Position numbers and translations under genes: made by a program. The notes under the pieces are model-generated. The model saw only the letters and a list, made by a program, of their open reading frames with translations, made no database searches and was not told the origin of the DNA. DNA of 20,558 nucleotides from a virus. Lineage: Duplodnaviria; Heunggongvirae; Uroviricota; Caudoviricetes. Shown one piece after another: positions 1 to 14,331 of this stretch. The stretch is from the IMG/VR virus record IMGVR_UViG_2541047726_000008, one strand, 5' to 3'. Within the stretch, counting starts at the first letter, position 1, and each line of letters opens with the position of its first letter.

Positions 1-1131
1 TCAAATGACCAGTTTTTTCCATTCCTTACCGCGTGCGTCGTTGTAAATATCGGTCATTTTTTGATTCGAATGGCCTAGCAAAATTTTGGTATCAACCCCC
101 TGCTCTCTGAACAATCGCTCTGATAAAGATCTCTGCTCATGGAAAGAGGGAGGGGTGCCATTAGCACGCCAGTTGTAATCCACAGAATCCCGGGCTTTTT
201 TAAATGCAACGGTTAATGTTGCTGGCTTAACCATCCCGCCGCGCTTAGCTGTCCCTTTCGCGTGATGGTGGTGCAATAGCCACGGACTAAGAACGCAATC
301 GCGGCAGGATGACACCACATCATCCAGGGTGAGATTTAATTTATCGCAACGCAGAGCCAGAGGGATGGCAATCCGGGTTCCTGTTTTTTGCTGTTCGACA
401 TGAAGATAACCATCCCGGATATCCGAAAATTGCATTTTGCAAATATCTGAAAGGCGCTGGCCTGTCATCAGTGCCAGCAGCATACCGCGCTGTAAAAAGT
501 AACCATCCTTTTCCGCTGCGTTATAAATCATCATCCACTCATCAAAAGTCAGTCGCTGTCTTGATATCCGCACCTGCGGTTTTTTTGCCGATTCTGCAGG
601 GTTAAAGCCTGGCGGGACATCGCCCGTTTGCTGAGCTTCCCGGAAAACATCGATCAGTACTTTCCTGAAAATTTGTCCCATTCTGTTATGTCCTCTGGCC
701 TTGTACTCTTCCAGTACTGATACCACATCTTTTACGGTTATTGCATCTAACGGTCTGGTGCCAAAACGTTCATCAAATACCCTGAGAGGGGCCGCTTTCT
801 GTTTCAGCGTGTTGAGTTTGATCTCGCCGTTTTCATATCTTTCCTGTTGAATTTTTCTGTAATTATTCAGAAAAATGGTAACGGTTGATGAACCGCCGGT
901 ATCACTAATAATTTTCTCCTGCAGACTGAGCATTTGTTCCATTTGCTGCCGGGCAAGACGGCTGTTCGCTTCTGCTGCAATAGTTTCTGCCAGTTTCTGG
1001 TCAATACTGCCGAGACCGTGATTTTTGCCTGTTATGGGATGCCTGTAACGCCAGTAAACTTTGTTATTTCTTTTGTCAAAATACGGAGATAATCCCGGAA
1101 CATCGGTTTTATATTTTCGCGGGCGCGCCAT
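1..1131 (-). CDS. int: Phage integrase (tyrosine recombinase)
   Basis: 376-aa ORF, ATG at 1131..1129 with GAGGA about 9 nt upstream; stop at 3..1 on the window edge. C-terminal region (…LLGHSNQKMTDIYNDAR) has the His/Tyr pattern of tyrosine recombinases. Overlaps the start of the excisionase gene. Confidence 0.9.
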   Translation of the reverse strand: MARPRKYKTDVPGLSPYFDKRNNKVYWRYRHPITGKNHGLGSIDQKLAETIAAEANSRLARQQMEQMLSLQEKIISDTGGSSTVTIFLNNYRKIQQERYENGEIKLNTLKQKAAPLRVFDERFGTRPLDAITVKDVVSVLEEYKARGHNRMGQIFRKVLIDVFREAQQTGDVPPGFNPAESAKKPQVRISRQRLTFDEWMMIYNAAEKDGYFLQRGMLLALMTGQRLSDICKMQFSDIRDGYLHVEQQKTGTRIAIPLALRCDKLNLTLDDVVSSCRDCVLSPWLLHHHHAKGTAKRGGMVKPATLTVAFKKARDSVDYNWRANGTPPSFHEQRSLSERLFREQGVDTKILLGHSNQKMTDIYNDARGKEWKKLVI

Positions 1132-1357
1132 CTTCCAGTATCCTCTTCAAAGCAGGGTGATCTGTGGCGATCACCTCCGGCTTGTTTACCATTCCGACAA
1201 AGCGAGCTTGCGGATCCACTCGCCAGCGTCTTCCAACTTTTTTGGGGAGAGGAAATATCATTCCGGCTTTAGCGTATTTACTTAACGTACTCGGAGTAGG
1301 GACCGGTTCACTGAATTCCTCTTTTGCCCACTCAGTGAGCAGAATAAGTCTTGCCAT
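1109..1357 (-). CDS. xis: Excisionase (lambda Xis-like)
   Basis: 82-aa ORF, ATG at 1357. Sequence …LTEWAK…GMIFPLPKKVGRRWRV resembles lambda Xis (LTLQEWNARQ…RRWVRECRIFPPPVKDGREY, from memory). 23-nt overlap with int start, the classic xis-int arrangement. Confidence 0.75.
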   Translation of the reverse strand: MARLILLTEWAKEEFSEPVPTPSTLSKYAKAGMIFPLPKKVGRRWRVDPQARFVGMVNKPEVIATDHPALKRILEDGAPAKI

Positions 1358-1421
1358 GAGCGTCGTTCGCTAATCATGGTCGCCGCCACTATAGCTGGTG
1401 GGCAACGACCGGGGTTGAACA

Positions 1422-3896
1422 TTAAAAATCAGCCTGATTCGGGATCAGTTTTTGCCAGATAGTTGAAACGTATTTTGCCTGGTAACGGGCATCATCCAGC
1501 GCATTGTGGCGCTCACCTTCGAATGGAATAGCCGCCCTGGCATCGAAGTCCATGGCTTTTCCCAGCTCAACGATTGTGCGTACATCGCGATCGTTGTAGT
1601 AACGCCACGGGCAGGGGATCCCCTGCCGTTCGTATGAACGGCGCAAAATCGTGTTGTCGAAGTTGGCTCCATTTCCCCAGACCTGAACAAAAAATTCGCC
1701 GGAGTTTTCGTCGATAAATTCCCGCAATTGCAGCAGTGCATCATCTAACGGGATTTCATCGGTCAGAATGGCAGATTGCGCCTCCCGTGATTGCTTAAGC
1801 CACCATTTAATGGTGCCACGATCAATGACTCCGCCAGCAGTATCCATATCGATGGTCTTACTAAATTCCGGCCCCATATCTCCGGTTTGCGGATCGAAAA
1901 ATATTGCACCTATTGAGATAAGCGGGGCATCGGGATTTTTTCCCATGGTTTCAAGGTCGATCATCATGTGGTGCCACATTCTGCTGGTGGATGTGATTTC
2001 TTGATGACCGTTCACCTTAATTGAGTGATCTGCCGTCTCGCCAGTTTCATTATCGCTATCGTGATGCTGATTGCCGCCAGTGTTCTCCTTGTGTGGATGT
2101 TCAGCGCCTTCCATTTCCTCCGGATCATCTTCCTGAACTTCAGGCTGATACTCTTCATCGAATGTTTCCTGGTATGTTGCGTCGCCCATTACCGCGCCAC
2201 AATCAGGGCAGTTGCCGCCGCCGGTCTGACCGCAGGCGGTGCAGACTTTTTCCACTTCCTGTTGCGCCACTGATTCAGGCTGTTTCGTTTCTGGCTCGTT
2301 TTGTAACGCATTTGGGCTGTTTTGTTCCGCTTTCTGGTCGTTCTGTTCCGTTTCTTGCTGGTTCTGGTTCACAGAATCGCGGGTCTGGTTCCCCTTAACC
2401 CATTTCGGATCATTCGGGTCGCTAATCCCTTCAACAAATTCACCACGTGATACTGCAAGCAGTTCATCGGCGTCAGGCTGGCTGATATTGGCTGCCTGCA
2501 TAATTTTGTTTACTTCGTCAGCGGTAACTTTTACTGGCTCTGGTTGTGCGGTCGTGTCAGATGCACCAGTATTTTGTTGTGAACCTGAGTATGTACCGTT
2601 TTTACGTGCGAAGTATTCCTCTTTTGTGATTTCCGTAGCTCCCAGGGCCAGTGCTTTTTCCAGACCAGAAAGTTTGTTTGCGCGACCGTATTTTTCGCCG
2701 TCCTTATCGGTGAAAAGGAAGTAGAACGGTCCCTCACGCTCTACAGATGGTTCGTCTTCCACTTCGCATTCGGTTTTTTCGTTGTCCGGCATTGCCGTTT
2801 CCACTGCATCAGTTTCTGGTACTGGTGACGGGAGAGTACCAGCTGTGCCCTGATTTGTTCCTTCGTCATCTTCAAACACGCCCTTGGTAGTCAGGTATTC
2901 AGTGATGTATTTGTTCAGTGCTACGGGATCTTTGTGAATGTCGATCGGACGCTCACGGACAAGGCCAAAAATAGTCTGACGGTCGTAGCGAACGGCATCG
3001 GGTTGTTTGCGCATTGATGCGGAAATGCGCTTCCAGTCTTCGCGATCTTTGTCGATAACTTCATTTTTTGCCCAGCGATGGATGCTGCCGTCAATGTTTC
3101 CGGTATCAATATCGCCAGGCCAGAGAGCGTAGGCCAGTTCTTCATCCAGCGTTTTCCATGTCTGCTTGTATTCGCGACAAATGGCGGCAGTGACTGGGTT
3201 GATTTTTCCTGCTGAGTTTTCAGTGTTCTGTTGATTGACTCTGGCGCGGGCGAGATCAACAACAGACGTGTATTTTCCGGTTTCCTTGCGTTCACCTTCG
3301 CGACGTTTTTTCCAGATGCGCATCTCTGCCTGAATTTCGGGCCATTTGGCACCAGGCTTACATTTATGCTTAACCCACCCGATGGCATGCAGCTTAAGCT
3401 CCGGATACATGGCGTTAACTTCTGGCATTTTCATCAACGCTTCAACGATATGTCCGTCGAATGTTGCCATGTCTTCCTGCAACAATTCCTGTGCGCTAAT
3501 AACCATATCAACGGTGATGTTTTCACATGTGTCGAACTTAACCATGACAGCGTTCTGTACTTCAGGGACCAGCTTGTCAAAAGTGACGTTCATCGGATCT
3601 GATTCAGTCTCAACCGGGACAAAGGAAGCAGACTCCTCATCCCAGCGGTTTTCCTGCATATATTCAGCATCCCAGGAATCGAGGGCAGGGCGGGGTATGC
3701 CGGGTTTATCCTCACAGACAATAAATTTATAAGCGCAGTCCTGAGCTGCAGGGAATTGCTCCAGAAATTGCCAATGAAATTTTGCGCGTGCGCGACGCTC
3801 ATCACCAGCTTCAATGGCAGTGGCCACCGCAACAGCGCTATCTTCTTTTATGGCCTGTTCATCAGGAATAGCAGCGCAAATAAAGACTTTACTCAT
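1422..3896 (-). CDS. Large prophage exonuclease: unknown N-terminal region, acidic linker with CxxC…CxxC zinc ribbon, C-terminal DnaQ-like 3'-5' exonuclease domain
   Basis: 824-aa ORF, ATG at 3896 with GAGGT 8 nt upstream. C-terminal about 180 aa carries DEDDh-type exonuclease motifs (MIDLETMG…, …HNALDDARYQAKY). Middle is Q/E/N/D-rich low complexity containing CTACGQTGGGNCPDCG. Confidence 0.85.
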   Translation of the reverse strand: MSKVFICAAIPDEQAIKEDSAVAVATAIEAGDERRARAKFHWQFLEQFPAAQDCAYKFIVCEDKPGIPRPALDSWDAEYMQENRWDEESASFVPVETESDPMNVTFDKLVPEVQNAVMVKFDTCENITVDMVISAQELLQEDMATFDGHIVEALMKMPEVNAMYPELKLHAIGWVKHKCKPGAKWPEIQAEMRIWKKRREGERKETGKYTSVVDLARARVNQQNTENSAGKINPVTAAICREYKQTWKTLDEELAYALWPGDIDTGNIDGSIHRWAKNEVIDKDREDWKRISASMRKQPDAVRYDRQTIFGLVRERPIDIHKDPVALNKYITEYLTTKGVFEDDEGTNQGTAGTLPSPVPETDAVETAMPDNEKTECEVEDEPSVEREGPFYFLFTDKDGEKYGRANKLSGLEKALALGATEITKEEYFARKNGTYSGSQQNTGASDTTAQPEPVKVTADEVNKIMQAANISQPDADELLAVSRGEFVEGISDPNDPKWVKGNQTRDSVNQNQQETEQNDQKAEQNSPNALQNEPETKQPESVAQQEVEKVCTACGQTGGGNCPDCGAVMGDATYQETFDEEYQPEVQEDDPEEMEGAEHPHKENTGGNQHHDSDNETGETADHSIKVNGHQEITSTSRMWHHMMIDLETMGKNPDAPLISIGAIFFDPQTGDMGPEFSKTIDMDTAGGVIDRGTIKWWLKQSREAQSAILTDEIPLDDALLQLREFIDENSGEFFVQVWGNGANFDNTILRRSYERQGIPCPWRYYNDRDVRTIVELGKAMDFDARAAIPFEGERHNALDDARYQAKYVSTIWQKLIPNQADF

Positions 3897-4932: not shown

Positions 4933-5101
4933 GATGGCAGCCTCCGCGATGAATTTGATTAACTCACCACCGAGGTTTTCCACGACCATAAGGGTGGTGA
5001 GACGTACAGGGGTGGAAATACCGGTCATCACGGAACCCGGCCAGCCTTGCGGCTGCCCTGCACGCCCCACCATAATGCGAATGTGGCTGTGCTTAACGCA
5101 T

Positions 5102-5124
5102 AAAAAAACCGCCTGAGCGCGGTT
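5102..5124 (-). terminator. Possible weak intrinsic terminator (minus strand)
   Basis: On the minus strand reads AACCGC-GCTCAG-GCGGTT followed by 7 T. Stem is short (4 GC + 2 AT pairs). Lies upstream of the re-called Rha start, supporting the shorter gene model. Confidence 0.3.
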
Positions 5125-5804
5125 ATGCGCCGTGAATGATTTCGGGTTTCCACGCCCGGCACCCGTTTTATGAGGTGCAGGTGCACTATAATTCCACCCG
5201 TTCTGGTTTTCAATAGCTACATTCAACATTTTCTCTTACCTTTCATCACCGAAGTGAACTTTGTTGATGCGGTGCCTGGTGCCTCCAGGTGACGTTAACC
5301 AGTTAACAATTAACGCCGGATACAGAGAATCCACCCATAACACTGTTTTTGGTTTTAACTGTTCCGCGTGCGCTCAGCCGCATTCACCGCATCACAAAAT
5401 TCACTTTAAAAAGGGCGGCAGAGCAGTCACGGAGTAAAACTGATACCGCCAAAAGTCACCAGAAAATTGATAACAGAGGGCGTTGCAGCGGGGTTGTCAC
5501 TTAAGCGTATGGTCAACCTGACAACCCGGTGTCCTCAACGGGGGAAGGAATAACCCCGCCATACTTACCGCCGCGCCATTTCGCGGATTGCCACAACCGG
5601 AAGCGCACGGTCGACGAAAATTTAACGACAGGCTATCTATGAACCAGCTACCTCGCCGTGCGCTTTCGCGTTATGGTCTGACTTTTCAGGGAAATATCCT
5701 TTCAGTAAACTGTCAGTGCCGGATTCTTATCCGTGTCCGGCGCACGACCACACGCTGTCACGAGAGGTCTCCATTCTCAACCAGTAACCTCAATGGAGGA
5801 TAAA

Positions 5805-6744: not shown

Positions 6745-7206
6745 CTACTGGTTACGTTTCTTTAGTGCCAGCATGTTCTCGAAGGCTTCCTCGTAGAGCT
6801 TGTTTAGTCCACGTAGCTGGTTAAGGAGTTTGGCTTTTTCTGACGCAGGTAGAATCTCGAAGAGGTTAAGTAACTCTGCCTGTTCTTCATTGACCAGCCT
6901 CCATCCTTTGCCTGAAAAGTTATCATCATAAGTATCTGATGATCTTACATAATTCATTAAGTCTTTAAGGTCTTCTCGAATGTCCTCTGGTTTTACCTTT
7001 AACAGAGCCGCAAATTTTAGCGCAGCGTCGGTATTTACCGGTATCTTGCCGTTCAGATACTGGCTAACGGTGCCTTGAGATTCGAATCCCAACAACTCAG
7101 CCGCCAGCTCTTGAGTCAGCTTCAGCTCTTTTTTTCTTGCATTCCATGCGGCTTTTAAATTCTTGCTCGCTTCTGGAGTTGCAATCACTTCGCGTGTTTT
7201 TTTCAT
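6745..7206 (-). CDS. CI-like prophage repressor (XRE-family HTH, no S24 peptidase domain)
   Basis: 153 aa. HTH at residues about 30-50 (LTQELAAELLGFESQGTVSQYLNG). C-terminal about 70 aa has no Ser/Lys autocleavage motif pattern. Divergent from the cro-like gene. No SD before the ATG; predicted promoter places the TSS at or next to the ATG. Confidence 0.8.
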   Translation of the reverse strand: MKKTREVIATPEASKNLKAAWNARKKELKLTQELAAELLGFESQGTVSQYLNGKIPVNTDAALKFAALLKVKPEDIREDLKDLMNYVRSSDTYDDNFSGKGWRLVNEEQAELLNLFEILPASEKAKLLNQLRGLNKLYEEAFENMLALKKRNQ

Positions 7207-8069: not shown

Positions 8070-9110
8070 ATGGCTAACGCCTGGCTCAGATTATGGCATG
8101 ACATGCCAAATGACCCTAAGTGGCGAACAATTGCCAGGGTGTCAGGGCAGCCAATTGCAACAGTGATGGCAGTGTATATCCACCTTCTGGTGAGCGCGTC
8201 ACGAAATGTCACGACATGTCACGGCGTGTCACTACGTGGTCACATTGATGTCACGACGGAAGATTTAGCAAGTGCGCTTGATGTGACGGAAGAAGTAATT
8301 GATTCAATTTTACAGGCAATGCAGGGGCGGGTACTTGATGGAGATTTAATCACCGGATGGGAAAAACGCCAGGTACTGAAAGAGGACAATGGCAACGTTT
8401 CACAAACCGCGAAATCCCCGGCAGAGCGCAAGAGAGCGCAGCGCGAGAGGGAAAAATTACGAAAACAGAATGAGGGGTGTCACGACGAGTCACGCATATG
8501 TCACGACATGTCACGACGAGTCACGACAGATAAAGATACAGATAAAGAATTAAACCCCACACATAACGCGCACGTGCGCGAGAGTGCTCCGACCAGTGAG
8601 TCGAGTGGTACGCCGTTGCAGGCAGCAGAACCTGCATCCCTGGATGGACTGAGCGAACCCATCGGGAAATTTCCGATGGTCGATGACTGGCATCCGTCGC
8701 CGGATTTTCGACGACGGGCTGCGTTGTGGGGGATGGCTTTGCCGGAGCCGGAATTTACACCTGCTGAACTTGCCGCTTTCCGGGACTACTGGGCAGCGGA
8801 GGGGAAAGTTTTCACGCAGGTTCAGTGGGAGCAGAAATTCGCCCGTCACGTAAATCACGTCAGGGCGCAGGTTAAGCCAGTCAGCAAGGGGGTAAACCAT
8901 GCAGCAGCACCAGGTGGCACCGCATCACGGGCAGTTCAGGAAATTCGGGCAGCACGTGAGCAGTGGGAACGTGAAAACGGATTTATCAGCGACGGAAACG
9001 GTCTGGAAGCTGTGGGAACTCATGGGGGAGGTTTATTCGAACCGCTGGACCCAGAAGAACGGGGCCGCACCTTCGAAGCTCTGGATTGCACAGATTGGCG
9101 CGATGACTGA
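8070..9110 (+). CDS. Replication initiator (O-like, iteron-containing) with DnaT-like C-terminal region
   Basis: Track start is GTG 8064; ATG at 8070 has GAGGTGAG upstream. 346 aa. The gene contains two iteron arrays. Residues about 200-260 (IGKFPMVDDWHPSPDFRRRAALWGMALPEPEFTPAELAAFRDYWAAEGKVFTQVQWEQKFARH) closely resemble E. coli DnaT C-terminus as recalled. The last about 70 codons overlap the P-like ORF out of frame. Confidence 0.7.
   Translation: MANAWLRLWHDMPNDPKWRTIARVSGQPIATVMAVYIHLLVSASRNVTTCHGVSLRGHIDVTTEDLASALDVTEEVIDSILQAMQGRVLDGDLITGWEKRQVLKEDNGNVSQTAKSPAERKRAQREREKLRKQNEGCHDESRICHDMSRRVTTDKDTDKELNPTHNAHVRESAPTSESSGTPLQAAEPASLDGLSEPIGKFPMVDDWHPSPDFRRRAALWGMALPEPEFTPAELAAFRDYWAAEGKVFTQVQWEQKFARHVNHVRAQVKPVSKGVNHAAAPGGTASRAVQEIRAAREQWERENGFISDGNGLEAVGTHGGGLFEPLDPEERGRTFEALDCTDWRDD
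8198..8254. repeat. Iteron array 1 (6 x GTCAC[G/T], 10-11 bp period) - putative ori
   Basis: GTCAC begins at 8198, 8208, 8218, 8228, 8239, 8250. Helical-turn spacing inside the initiator gene, as in lambda ori within O. Confidence 0.65.
8479..8524. repeat. Iteron array 2 (5 x GTCACG, 10-11 bp period) with adjacent AT-rich stretch
   Basis: GTCAC begins at 8479, 8489, 8500, 8510, 8520, followed directly by AT-rich ACAGATAAAGATACAGATAAAGAATTAAA (8525-8555), a candidate DNA unwinding element. Confidence 0.65.
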
Positions 9111-9564
9111 GCAGCAAATCCGACAGGTCTGCCGCCAGTGCATGGACCGCTGCCGGGCGGGTGAAACATGGCCCCCGGACCTGGCTGAGTTTGTGGCGCT
9201 GATTTCAGAAAGCGGGGCCAATCCATTTGGCCTGACGGTGGATGCTGTGATGGAGGAGTACCGCCGCTGGCGTGATGAGTCCTGGCGATATGACGGAAGC
9301 GACAAATATCCGTGGCCTCAGCCTGTGCTGTACCACATCTGCCTCGAAATGCGTACCAGAGGGATTGAGCGCCAGATGACGCAGGGTGAGTTAAAACGAC
9401 TTGCGGAACGGCAACTGACGAAATGGGCAAAGCATGTTGGTAACGGGATGAGTGTTCCGCCAGTGCGACGACAACTGGAAGGGGCGAAACACCCGCAAGG
9501 GCCAACGCCAATTGAACGGCTGAAACAGGAATACGAACGCCGGAAGGCAGCTGGTTTTATTTGA
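8899..9564 (+). CDS. Lambda-P-like replication protein (helicase loader)
   Basis: 221-aa ORF; ATG at 8899 has a strong AAGGGGG SD. C-terminal two thirds resemble lambda P as recalled (…ETWPPDLAEFVALISES… vs …FLPSPGQFVAWCREE…). Start is uncertain: 8899 overlaps the O-like ORF by 212 nt; the alternative ATG at 9103 overlaps the O stop as ATGACTGA. Confidence 0.6.
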   Translation: MQQHQVAPHHGQFRKFGQHVSSGNVKTDLSATETVWKLWELMGEVYSNRWTQKNGAAPSKLWIAQIGAMTEQQIRQVCRQCMDRCRAGETWPPDLAEFVALISESGANPFGLTVDAVMEEYRRWRDESWRYDGSDKYPWPQPVLYHICLEMRTRGIERQMTQGELKRLAERQLTKWAKHVGNGMSVPPVRRQLEGAKHPQGPTPIERLKQEYERRKAAGFI

Positions 9565-13999: not shown

Positions 14000-14039
14000 T
14001 GCAGCGGGTGCTTGAGGCTATCTGTCTCAGGCATGAACA

Positions 14040-14130
14040 CCAAAAGGCAGATAGAGAAAAGCCCCAGTTAACATTACGCGTCCGGCAAGACGCTTAACAT
14101 TAATCTGAGGCCATATCTATGCTCTACACA
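14040..14130 (-). ncRNA. Putative Sok-like antisense RNA (approximate)
   Basis: Inferred from hok-family architecture. Candidate minus-strand promoter TTGCCT (14162..14157), 17 nt, TAACCT (14139..14134) would drive an antisense RNA across the upstream-ORF initiation region. The -10 is weak and the ends are not defined. Confidence 0.3.
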
Positions 14131-14175
14131 CGTAGGTTAGCCTCTTACGTGCCGAAAGGCAAGGAGAAGCAGGCT

Positions 14176-14331
14176 ATGAAGCAGCAAAAGGCGATGCTAA
14201 TCGCCCTGATCGTCATCTGTTTAACCGTCATTGTGACGGCACTGGTAACGAGGAAAGACCTCTGCGAGGTACGAATCCGAACCGGCCAGACGGAGGTCGC
14301 TGTCTTCACAGCTTACGAACCTGAGGAGTAA
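14176..14331 (+). CDS. hok: Hok/Gef-family type I toxin
   Basis: 51 aa, MKQQKAMLIALIVICLTVIVTALVTRKDLCEVRIRTGQTEVAVFTAYEPEE, matching the Hok pattern (…CLT…TRK.LCE.R…G..EVAAF.AYE). AAGGAG 9 nt upstream. An in-frame upstream ATG at 14119 with its own SD extends the frame by 19 codons (mok-like leader ORF). Confidence 0.8.
   Translation: MKQQKAMLIALIVICLTVIVTALVTRKDLCEVRIRTGQTEVAVFTAYEPEE

Follow-up and report, generated by a model that had tools for sequence, protein, structure and literature searches.

A probable two-part replication origin within the initiator gene of a lambdoid Escherichia coli prophage

Introduction

Replication origins that lie inside the gene of their own initiator are textbook knowledge for lambda, yet the number of phage families in which such origins have been dissected is very small. 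In lambda, P22 and L the iterons are found within the initiator gene, which is gene 18 in both P22 and L, and that of phage L carries six repeats of ~11 bp (PMC8022706). The gp38 protein of SPP1 binds direct repeats beside a DNA-unwinding element (DUE) in gene 38 (oriL) as well as a second site, oriR (PMC6316719). Here we analyze a lambdoid prophage of E. coli represented by a 20,558-nt stretch of DNA (IMG/VR record IMGVR_UViG_2541047726_000008, Caudoviricetes; "the window" hereafter), in which a replication initiator gene at 8070-9110 contains two separate arrays of the repeat GTCAC. An initial annotation had read these arrays as a putative origin within an O-like gene, duplicated or bipartite. 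Our comparison across relatives suggests that the gene probably does harbor the origin of the prophage and that this origin has two parts, a core formed by the second array and an adjoining AT-rich element, and an accessory first array.

Separate arrays that share one initiator word are familiar from P1 (incC/incA), F (ori2/incC) and P4 (ori/crr), where only one array lies beside the unwinding element and the second modulates initiation. In these replicons the repeats are located on the flanks of the rep gene or at a distance of kilobases. Their units measure ~19-22 bp (8 bp in P4), and the proteins that bind them are of the Rep_3 or the alpha-primase/helicase type. The RepA_N plasmids are known to have a single central array.

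Results

Repeat arrays in the initiator gene

The gene and the elements on which the argument rests are listed below in window coordinates.

8070-9110, plus strand: replication initiator gene, an open reading frame (ORF) of 346 amino acids (aa) with a winged-helix N-domain, a basic helix, a disordered linker and a DnaT-like domain.
8198-8255, plus strand: array 1, composed of six direct GTCAC(G) iterons that recur every 10-11 bp and encode aa 43-62.
8283-8287, minus strand: inverted iteron copy (GTGAC on the plus strand), 33 bp after the last direct copy of array 1.
8479-8525, plus strand: array 2, composed of five direct GTCAC(G) iterons that recur every 10-11 bp within the code for the disordered linker; proposed initiator sites of the origin core.
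8526-8556, plus strand: AT-rich, A-skewed element of AGATAA/AGATAC hexamers (ACAGATAAAGAT twice, then AATTAAA); proposed DUE.

On the plus strand, GTCAC starts at 8198, 8208, 8218, 8228, 8239 and 8250 in array 1 (intervals of 10, 10, 10, 11 and 11 bp) and at 8479, 8489, 8500, 8510 and 8520 in array 2 (10, 11, 10 and 10 bp), with the longer form GTCACG in nine of the eleven copies and an identical consensus, tGTCACG(a/c), in both arrays. All 11 coordinates of the initial annotation were exact, its distance of "about 225 bp" corresponds to a gap of 223 bp (229 bp from the start of the last array-1 copy to that of the first array-2 copy), and the repeats are translated inside the ORF as it had stated. 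Tandem Repeats Finder returned period-10 arrays at 8198-8243 and 8478-8528. Since the number of GTCAC words over the whole window is at chance level (35 observed vs. 32.7 expected), it is their clustering that constitutes the signal: up to six copies occur per 60 nt, compared to at most three in 1000 dinucleotide-preserving shuffles, and among the pentamers of the whole window none clusters as strongly. A third array, comparable to SPP1 oriR, was sought in the window and none was found, the other GTCACG copies being scattered. Positions 8498-8527 in array 2 and 8206-8235 in array 1 are 90% identical over 30 nt, which points to a recent exchange between the arrays. The AT-rich stretch that the second array had been said to adjoin is borne out by an A+T content of 74% at 8525-8555 vs. 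46% for the gene (GC 0.35 at 8520-8559), and ACAGATAAAGAT forms a 12-bp repeat within it.

The inverted copy at 8283-8287 had gone unmentioned in the initial annotation and is conserved in relatives. Twelve bp upstream of array 1, the word ATATCCACC at 8178-8186 matches the DnaA-box consensus TTATCCACA by eye at seven of nine positions; it encodes a conserved Y-I-H and varies in relatives, and nothing supports a real DnaA box.

Conservation among relatives

The N-domain family comprises 936 detectable members. From genome, metagenome and viral collections 360 loci were fetched, giving 313 usable genes and 89 non-redundant representatives. Both arrays are conserved in about 80 non-redundant relatives, and the layout occurs in Enterobacterales, Pseudomonas, Bordetella, Chromobacterium, Acidovorax and Gilvimarinus. 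Counted from the ATG, the family norm consists of four GTCAC copies at nt 129, 139, 149 and 160 (zone nt 129-164), the inverted copy at nt 193, and an array 2 of 3-4 copies at ~nt 380-430 followed by (AGATAA/AGATAC)n. Iterons are spaced by 10 bp in 123 intervals and by 11 bp in 41 (29 diverse loci). Copy numbers range from two to six in array 1 and from three to nine in array 2, and the combinations seen include 6/5, 6/4, 4/5, 4/4, 4/3, 6/6 and 6/9. Two IMG/VR contigs (L176 and L180; gene nt 410-493) have an array 2 grown to nine and to about six or seven copies, respectively, with array 1 still at six; seven TCACG cores can be counted in array 2 of L180.

The comparison of iteron number in related prophages that the initial annotation had proposed thus identifies two arrays, typically with 4 + 3-4 copies, as the norm. 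The 6+5 count is common to E. albertii and many E. coli prophages, and the two extra copies in array 1 correspond to a 7-aa insert, TCHGVSL, absent from all more distant homologues. From this distribution, the 6+5 count is a lineage-specific expansion, and the possession of two arrays is ancestral in the family. Between the two options offered at the outset, "bipartite" holds, whereas "duplicated" does not: the two arrays are ancestral, and only the extra copies (6+5 vs. 4+3-4) are specific to the lineage. At the level of E. coli itself, a 2.3-kb query that included flanking genes matched 3252 of 5426 complete genomes, at least 80% of the query being covered in 658. None of the classical model phages carries the N-domain.

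The AT-rich element shows a different relation to each array. In a set of 81 loci, of which 67 contain AGATAA, the AT content averages 69% over the 40 nt that follow array 2 vs. 48% gene-wide, while over the 40 nt that follow array 1 it averages 50% vs. the same 48% (39% vs. 37% in GC-rich hosts). Among five GC-rich loci the stretch after array 2 reaches 65-78% AT against 34-39% gene-wide in four, the fifth (L038) not being enriched. A 65% A+T patch is present in the window at 8280-8319, 30-70 bp after array 1, and is not conserved in relatives. The two arrays are not equivalent, a conserved AT-rich partner being seen only at array 2, and given this specificity it is array 2 together with the AT-rich element that looks like the origin core.

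Concerted switching of the repeat word and selection on the DNA

Three iteron classes were evident, each using the same word in both arrays: GTCACG (class A), GTAACG (class B) and CGAACGC (class C). Class B loci devoid of GTCAC include those from Enterobacter (L028), Pantoea (L024) and Marinobacter (L034); class C loci devoid of GTCAC include L031, L033 and L035 along with numerous viral contigs. When each zone was searched without bias for its best 5-mer with a 9-12 bp period, the zone 1 word was equal to or overlapped the zone 2 word in nearly all of the 89 representatives. We also compared the counts in the two zones with those in a 170-nt control stretch, using the locus's own word; mean copies in zone 1, zone 2 and control were 4.83/4.40/0.02 for GTCAC, 3.17/4.17/0.33 for GTAAC and 3.12/4.53/0.12 for AACGC. 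The inverted copy reads GTCACG in most relatives (GACGTGAC in class A) and has switched to GTAACG in at least one GTAAC-class locus (GACGTTAC in L028). The repeat word therefore co-varies with the initiator lineage in three classes and in both arrays. The switch is seen most directly between an Erwinia locus (L013, GTCAC) and Enterobacter L028 (GTAAC), whose N-terminal ~140 aa are 72% identical and in which Val-Thr codons change synonymously from GTC ACG to GTA ACG in both arrays. Both arrays being conserved and changing together, the proposed two-part origin is an old design and no local accident.

The word is read in all three frames (as S-R, V-T and G/C-H); as the period of 10-11 bp is no multiple of three and all frames are used, the peptide follows the DNA. 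In class A, all six synonymous sites of array 1 (GCG TCA; GTC ACG; GGT CAC; GTC ACG) are 100% fixed across 18 loci with a median nt identity of 69%, compared to a mean of 58% for the commonest codon at 38 other invariant residues (Mann-Whitney p=1e-4). The corresponding values in class C are 93% vs. 62% (p=3e-5), and third positions in the spacers (T47, G50) vary freely. Fixed synonymous sites in array 1 next to drifting codons elsewhere show that the DNA itself is under selection.

Protein domains and gene neighborhood

The domains of the initiator and the features to the right of the AT-rich element are as follows.

8070-8369, plus strand: N-terminal winged-helix domain resembling the N-terminal domain (NTD) of DnaD, aa 1-100; presumed origin-binding module.
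8418-8471, plus strand: conserved basic helix predicted by AlphaFold2, aa 117-134 (ERKRAQREREKLRK), just upstream of array 2.
8567-8580, no strand assigned: GC-rich, perfect 14-bp palindrome, CGCGCACGTGCGCG, right of the AT-rich element and belonging to the DnaT-type C-terminal module.
8670-8870, plus strand: DnaT-like single-stranded DNA (ssDNA)-binding domain, aa 201-267 (Pfam PF17948, E 9.6e-18).
9103-9564, plus strand: lambda-P-like helicase loader gene (PF06992, E 1.8e-15; PHROG 109 "P-like helicase loader"; RefSeq "replication protein P").

From the ATG at 8070, RefSeq labels the product "DnaT-like ssDNA-binding domain-containing protein", an annotation that recurs at 99.9% identity in numerous strains, E. 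coli ABU 83972 among them. PHROG 1408/3729 ("replication initiation protein") matches with weak links to DnaD-like and replisome-organizer families, and close relatives are named "phage replisome organizer" by NCBI; matches to replisome-organizer profiles are weak (PHROG 4880, E 4.5e-5; PF09681, E 0.12, for the homologue in phage Evi). AlphaFold2 predicts a helical N-domain whose core (aa 1-100) is a winged helix, the helix at 117-134, a disordered linker (~138-200) and a confident DnaT domain; array 1 codes for the loop between winged-helix helices 1 and 2 (aa 43-62) and array 2 for aa 138-152 of the linker. The N-domain resembles the winged helix of DnaD-NTD and RepA_N, and no Pfam family matched the N-terminal 136 aa. 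Within the basic helix, residues R120, K121, R122, Q124, R125 and R127 are invariant. For the C-terminal domain, PF17948 scores 64 bits vs. a cutoff of 25, and Foldseek aligns it to E. coli DnaT84-153 bound to ssDNA (4ou6) with 59% identity and a TM-score of 0.93 (57-60% and 0.86-0.93 over 4ou6 and 6aeq), a match to the DnaT domain in both fold and sequence; as a full-length DnaT equivalog, however, it falls below the threshold (NF002770, 97 bits vs. a cutoff of 201). Homology to lambda O was considered and rejected, as neither NCBIfam nor Pfam, the latter queried with the complete protein and with its N-domain separately (up to E=10), returned Phage_rep_O (PF04492); in Pfam the DnaT domain was the sole significant match. 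The term "O-like" is apt for position and function, but not for family, the protein consisting of a DnaD-like winged helix and a DnaT-like domain. Winged helix, DnaT ssDNA-binding domain and an adjacent P-like loader form a set that would fit an initiator.

The palindrome CGCGCACGTGCGCG is perfect in 52 of the fetched loci and has one mismatch in 34; the two terminator-like matches correspond to it on the minus strand. The start of the loader gene overlaps the stop codon of the initiator (ATGACTGA), and the whole forms part of a lambdoid early-right operon with a cI-like repressor (6745-7206, minus strand), YdaS/Cro-like and YdaT/CII-like genes, the initiator, the P-like loader, DUF1627 and DUF977. 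A promoter was sought at or near array 1 and none was found.

In ABU 83972 the integrase end of the prophage abuts a truncated ompW and a truncated sfaF/focD usher gene of the F1C fimbrial operon (window 1-1600; 1-5800 in L361), which places the prophage at the ompW site (PPompW-like), next to a disrupted fimbrial cluster. An Rfam scan at gathering level found no known RNA element between 8000 and 8700. Elsewhere in the window it returned C4 antisense RNA (4990-5077, minus strand), isrK (5102-5178, minus strand), the small RNA DicF (5413-5464, minus strand) beside dicB/ydfABC-like genes, and sok (14006-14181, plus strand), the antitoxin RNA in a hokD/sok module. Scattered GTCAC words at 5426 and 5455, among the copies in 5426-5500, lie inside DicF and are unrelated to the iterons.

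Mosaic structure of the initiator gene

Compared along its length, the initiator gene proves to be a recombinant. Its nt 1-485 are ~88% identical to phages Evi, Tritos and vB_EcoS-640R1, and nt 465-1047 are ~93% identical to ydaU of Rac-SA53, so that the mosaic junction (overlap nt 465-485; window 8465-8548) falls on the AT-rich element directly after array 2. Evi shares the N-domain and has both arrays (4+5 copies) and a different C-terminus; Rac-SA53 ydaU shares the AT-rich element, the palindrome and the DnaT domain, and its N-domain is DUF1376. The latter has no GTCAC arrays, and before its AT-rich element only an inverted repeat, TGTTCAAACA/TGTTTGAACA, is found. In Pseudomonas phages the N-domain is a separate ORF of 160 aa that contains both arrays and is followed by a gene for a DnaB-like helicase. 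These arrangements show that the N-domain and its iterons move as one module that is paired with varying helicase-recruiting modules, and such co-mobility is what is expected of an origin-recognition module. Because the AT-rich element is common to initiators with unrelated N-domains, it may act as a recombination linker between modules. We had also considered two arrays as a general trait of initiators with a DnaT module, an idea rejected on account of Rac-SA53 ydaU.

Within the coding region of the DnaT domain, GTCACGTAAATCACG at 8845-8860 contains two iteron-like words (8845/8854) 9 bp apart; the pair is probably coincidental, because it is identical in Rac-SA53 ydaU, which has no iteron arrays. 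In a Serratia metagenome-assembled genome (L037) and in Pantoea (L039, match 2501-2830), the N-domain is fused to another C-terminal region (…YVYYVATTDGDVVRVGISRNPWARCKDLK…) and neither iteron arrays nor the AT-rich element are present; these proteins may represent a domesticated or repurposed origin-binding domain. Two 50.9-kb circular records of P. aeruginosa deposited as plasmids (L362, CP137943.1, and CP124671.1) have a lambdoid early region with an S24 repressor, CII, the N-domain ORF with both arrays, a DnaB-like helicase and NinB, and look like phage genomes captured as episomes. A plasmid database, searched for autonomous replication, yielded 11 matches, mostly large E. coli plasmids or mislabelled prophage-bearing chromosomes; as a sign of autonomous replication these matches, the two circular Pseudomonas records included, are suggestive only.

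The loop encoded by array 1

In alignments of the N-domains by class, only the loop encoded by array 1, between winged-helix helices 1 and 2, differs systematically: it reads S(R/Q)NVT-RG-HxDVT in class A, KNET-RG-NATVT in class B (L034), NATE-RG-RTQNV in class C and xxEE-RG-TxQ in lineages without an array. The Arg-Gly at the loop tip is invariant in all classes, and because the class A CGN codon of Arg49 has a free third base, this residue is held by selection on the protein. The canonical helix-turn-helix (HTH) helices (EDLASALD; EEVIDSILQAM) are acidic and do not track the class, the second varying even within a class. We therefore considered whether the initiator might be self-referential, array 1 being both a binding site and the code for the loop that reads it; on these alignments we regard this idea as unlikely. 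The H/N switch in the loop is forced by the codon (CAC/AAC), which weighs against a reading role, and since the codon change dictates the residue, cause and effect are inseparable from sequence alone. His51 as the reader of the third iteron base was likewise weakened as a candidate by L018, which has Val at this position yet carries GTCAC arrays. If the idea were true, a mutation in an iteron of array 1 would alter site and reader together, and the gene would have an inherent means of generating new origin specificities and replicon incompatibility groups.

Discussion

Conservation of the arrays, concerted class switching, frozen synonymous sites and the retained AT-rich element strongly support the initial proposal of an origin made of in-gene iterons on one helical face beside an AT-rich neighbor. 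We consider it probable that this lambdoid E. coli prophage has its origin in its own initiator gene and that the origin is in two parts, array 2 and the AT-rich element as core and array 1 as accessory. The core that we infer, array 2 (8479-8525) with the AGATAA-repeat element (8526-8556), would be analogous to lambda ori. The iterons are almost certainly binding sites of the initiator itself, presumably by way of its N-domain, and we take array 1 (six iterons and the inverted copy, 8198-8287) to be an accessory initiator-binding array that co-evolved with array 2.

In such a two-part origin, N-domain winged-helix monomers would bind head to tail on the direct repeats along one face of the DNA, as winged-helix response regulators of the PhoB/OmpR type do on direct repeats one helical turn apart. 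The bound array would distort the DNA such that the adjoining AT-rich element opens, and the DnaT-like C-domain would hold the opened single strand and/or dock the P-like loader with host DnaB. The most likely role of array 1 would be to form a looped or wrapped higher-order complex with array 2, raising the local occupancy of the initiator.

Several observations weigh against this interpretation. The acidic and variable HTH helices leave no evident DNA-reading surface in the N-domain. Helical phasing between the arrays is not claimable, and a rigid looped geometry finds no support, given that the distance from the last array-1 copy to the first array-2 copy, mostly 227-229 bp, ranges from 130 to 319 bp; this spacing also partly mirrors the conserved length of the intervening protein domain. 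Four loci from Entomomonas/Ventosimonas and a viral contig (L027, L032, L036 and L253) keep the loop peptide xxEERGTxQ with no periodic repeat in the array-1 zone, and at the position of array 2 retain no more than two degenerate copies of (C/T)GAAC, with a 10-bp spacing. They seem to have lost array 1, which may then be dispensable; either this is so or they are decaying prophages. Finally, our literature searches (iteron, DnaT-like phage initiators, oriJ/ydaU) returned no paper and no experiment on an origin, on binding or on unwinding in this N-domain family.

The alternative that survives best, which we regard as possible though rather less probable than an accessory function, is that array 1 acts mainly in a negative or regulatory manner: as a roadblock for RNA polymerase arriving from the early rightward promoter, in the autoregulation of initiator and P-like loader, by titration or handcuffing in the manner of the second iteron arrays of P1 (incA) or F (incC), or as a polar fork barrier. 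It would account for the lack of a conserved AT-rich partner at array 1, for the lineages without array 1, and for its place near the start of the operon, with most of the initiator and the entire loader gene still to come. The conserved inverted copy 33 bp downstream also suits it, such a copy being typical of Rep operator sites. In SPP1, gp38 at oriR has been proposed to stall forks (PMC6316719). Against it stand the absence of a promoter-like site at or near array 1 and the fact that restraint of copy number has no obvious use for a phage origin in the lytic phase. This alternative overlaps with the two-part origin, and our data do not separate positive from negative action.

That another phage protein, such as the upstream YdaS/Cro-like or YdaT/CII-like regulator, binds the iterons and the initiator gene is merely their host seems very unlikely to us. 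The acidic, poorly conserved HTH helices, and the fact that outside the loop encoded by array 1 no residue tracks the iteron class, would speak for such a binder, but the arrays accompany the N-domain across differing neighborhoods, including Pseudomonas phages in which both the flanking regulators and the helicase module are different. Conversely, Rac-SA53 has similar YdaS/YdaT-type neighbors, a different N-domain and no GTCAC arrays, and an initiator that binds iterons within its own gene is the rule in lambda, P22 and SPP1. We give even less credence to two independent origins, each array firing with its own AT-rich patch: the patch at 8280-8319 in the window would provide array 1 with a partner, yet at this position relatives are no richer in AT than the rest of the gene to any marked degree (50% vs. 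48%), as opposed to the 69% after array 2. That the repeats are a by-product without function in cis, stemming from a repetitive peptide or a recent local duplication in the prophage, can practically be dismissed, for although two array-1 copies are lineage-specific and the arrays resemble each other at 90% identity over 30 nt, the word occurs in all three frames with a period that three does not divide, synonymous positions are frozen in two independent iteron classes, both arrays occur in relatives from other bacterial classes at a protein identity of only ~60%, and nt identities of 61-69% exclude recent horizontal copies of one sequence.

The two-part origin can be placed among the described systems as follows. 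As in lambda, P22 and L, its place is midway along the initiator gene, where a linker joins the N-terminal module for origin binding to the C-terminal module that interacts with the loader; as in lambda, iterons are followed by an AT-rich element and a GC-rich palindrome, with a P-type loader gene directly downstream, and recombination exchanges N-domain and iterons as a unit. The differences from lambda lie in the iterons, which are 6+5 direct repeats of 10-11 bp built on the 6-bp core GTCACG as opposed to four 19-bp dyad-symmetric sites, in the second conserved array 230 bp upstream within the code for the DNA-binding domain, in an initiator that is no Phage_rep_O homologue, and in its C-module, a DnaT-like ssDNA-binding domain. 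The palindrome is placed like that to the right of ori-lambda, but is perfect here in only some relatives.

Closest in logic are SPP1 gp38 and the RepA_N plasmids. The former shares direct repeats with an AT-rich DUE in its own gene and a second repeat locus; its second site, however, is ~13 kb away with a DUE of its own, compared to 230 bp, the same gene and no conserved DUE here, and with sequence similarity below family thresholds homology is at best remote. The RepA_N initiators of Firmicutes plasmids (RepA of pSK41/pTZ2162; PDB 4pta, 4pt7) share a winged-helix NTD and an origin inside rep; they differ in showing no detectable sequence homology (again at best remote), in belonging to plasmids rather than phages, and in the fold of the C-domain, which is DnaT-like here. 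The likeness to P1 incA and F incC is one of architecture only, two arrays and one DUE, both arrays here being inside the coding sequence of the initiator. Rac ydaU/oriJ has the DnaT-like C-terminal module, the palindrome and the AGATAA/AGATAC element in common with the locus, at 92-93% nt identity, and the Rac-SA53 gene differs in its DUF1376 N-domain and missing GTCAC arrays; a functional origin of Rac, oriJ, is cited in PMC11014345 and PMC3945230. An in-gene iteron origin is thus of a known sort, and what is new is a second array, conserved and co-evolving, whose nucleotides also code for a class-specific loop.

The finding extends beyond a single prophage, as the N-domain family is also present in prophages of Pseudomonas, Bordetella, Chromobacterium and others. 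It represents a case of overlapping codes, in which dual selection acts on nucleotides that serve both a protein loop and a predicted protein-binding DNA array. An experimental system stands ready in the three natural specificity classes, in a second array that can be recoded synonymously, and in natural copy-number variants, those of array 2 (3-9 copies) being usable for dosage experiments. The origin and its specificity classes could serve as a possible source of orthogonal origin/initiator pairs, and may help to predict which prophages are competent for replication and how co-resident prophages interfere with each other.

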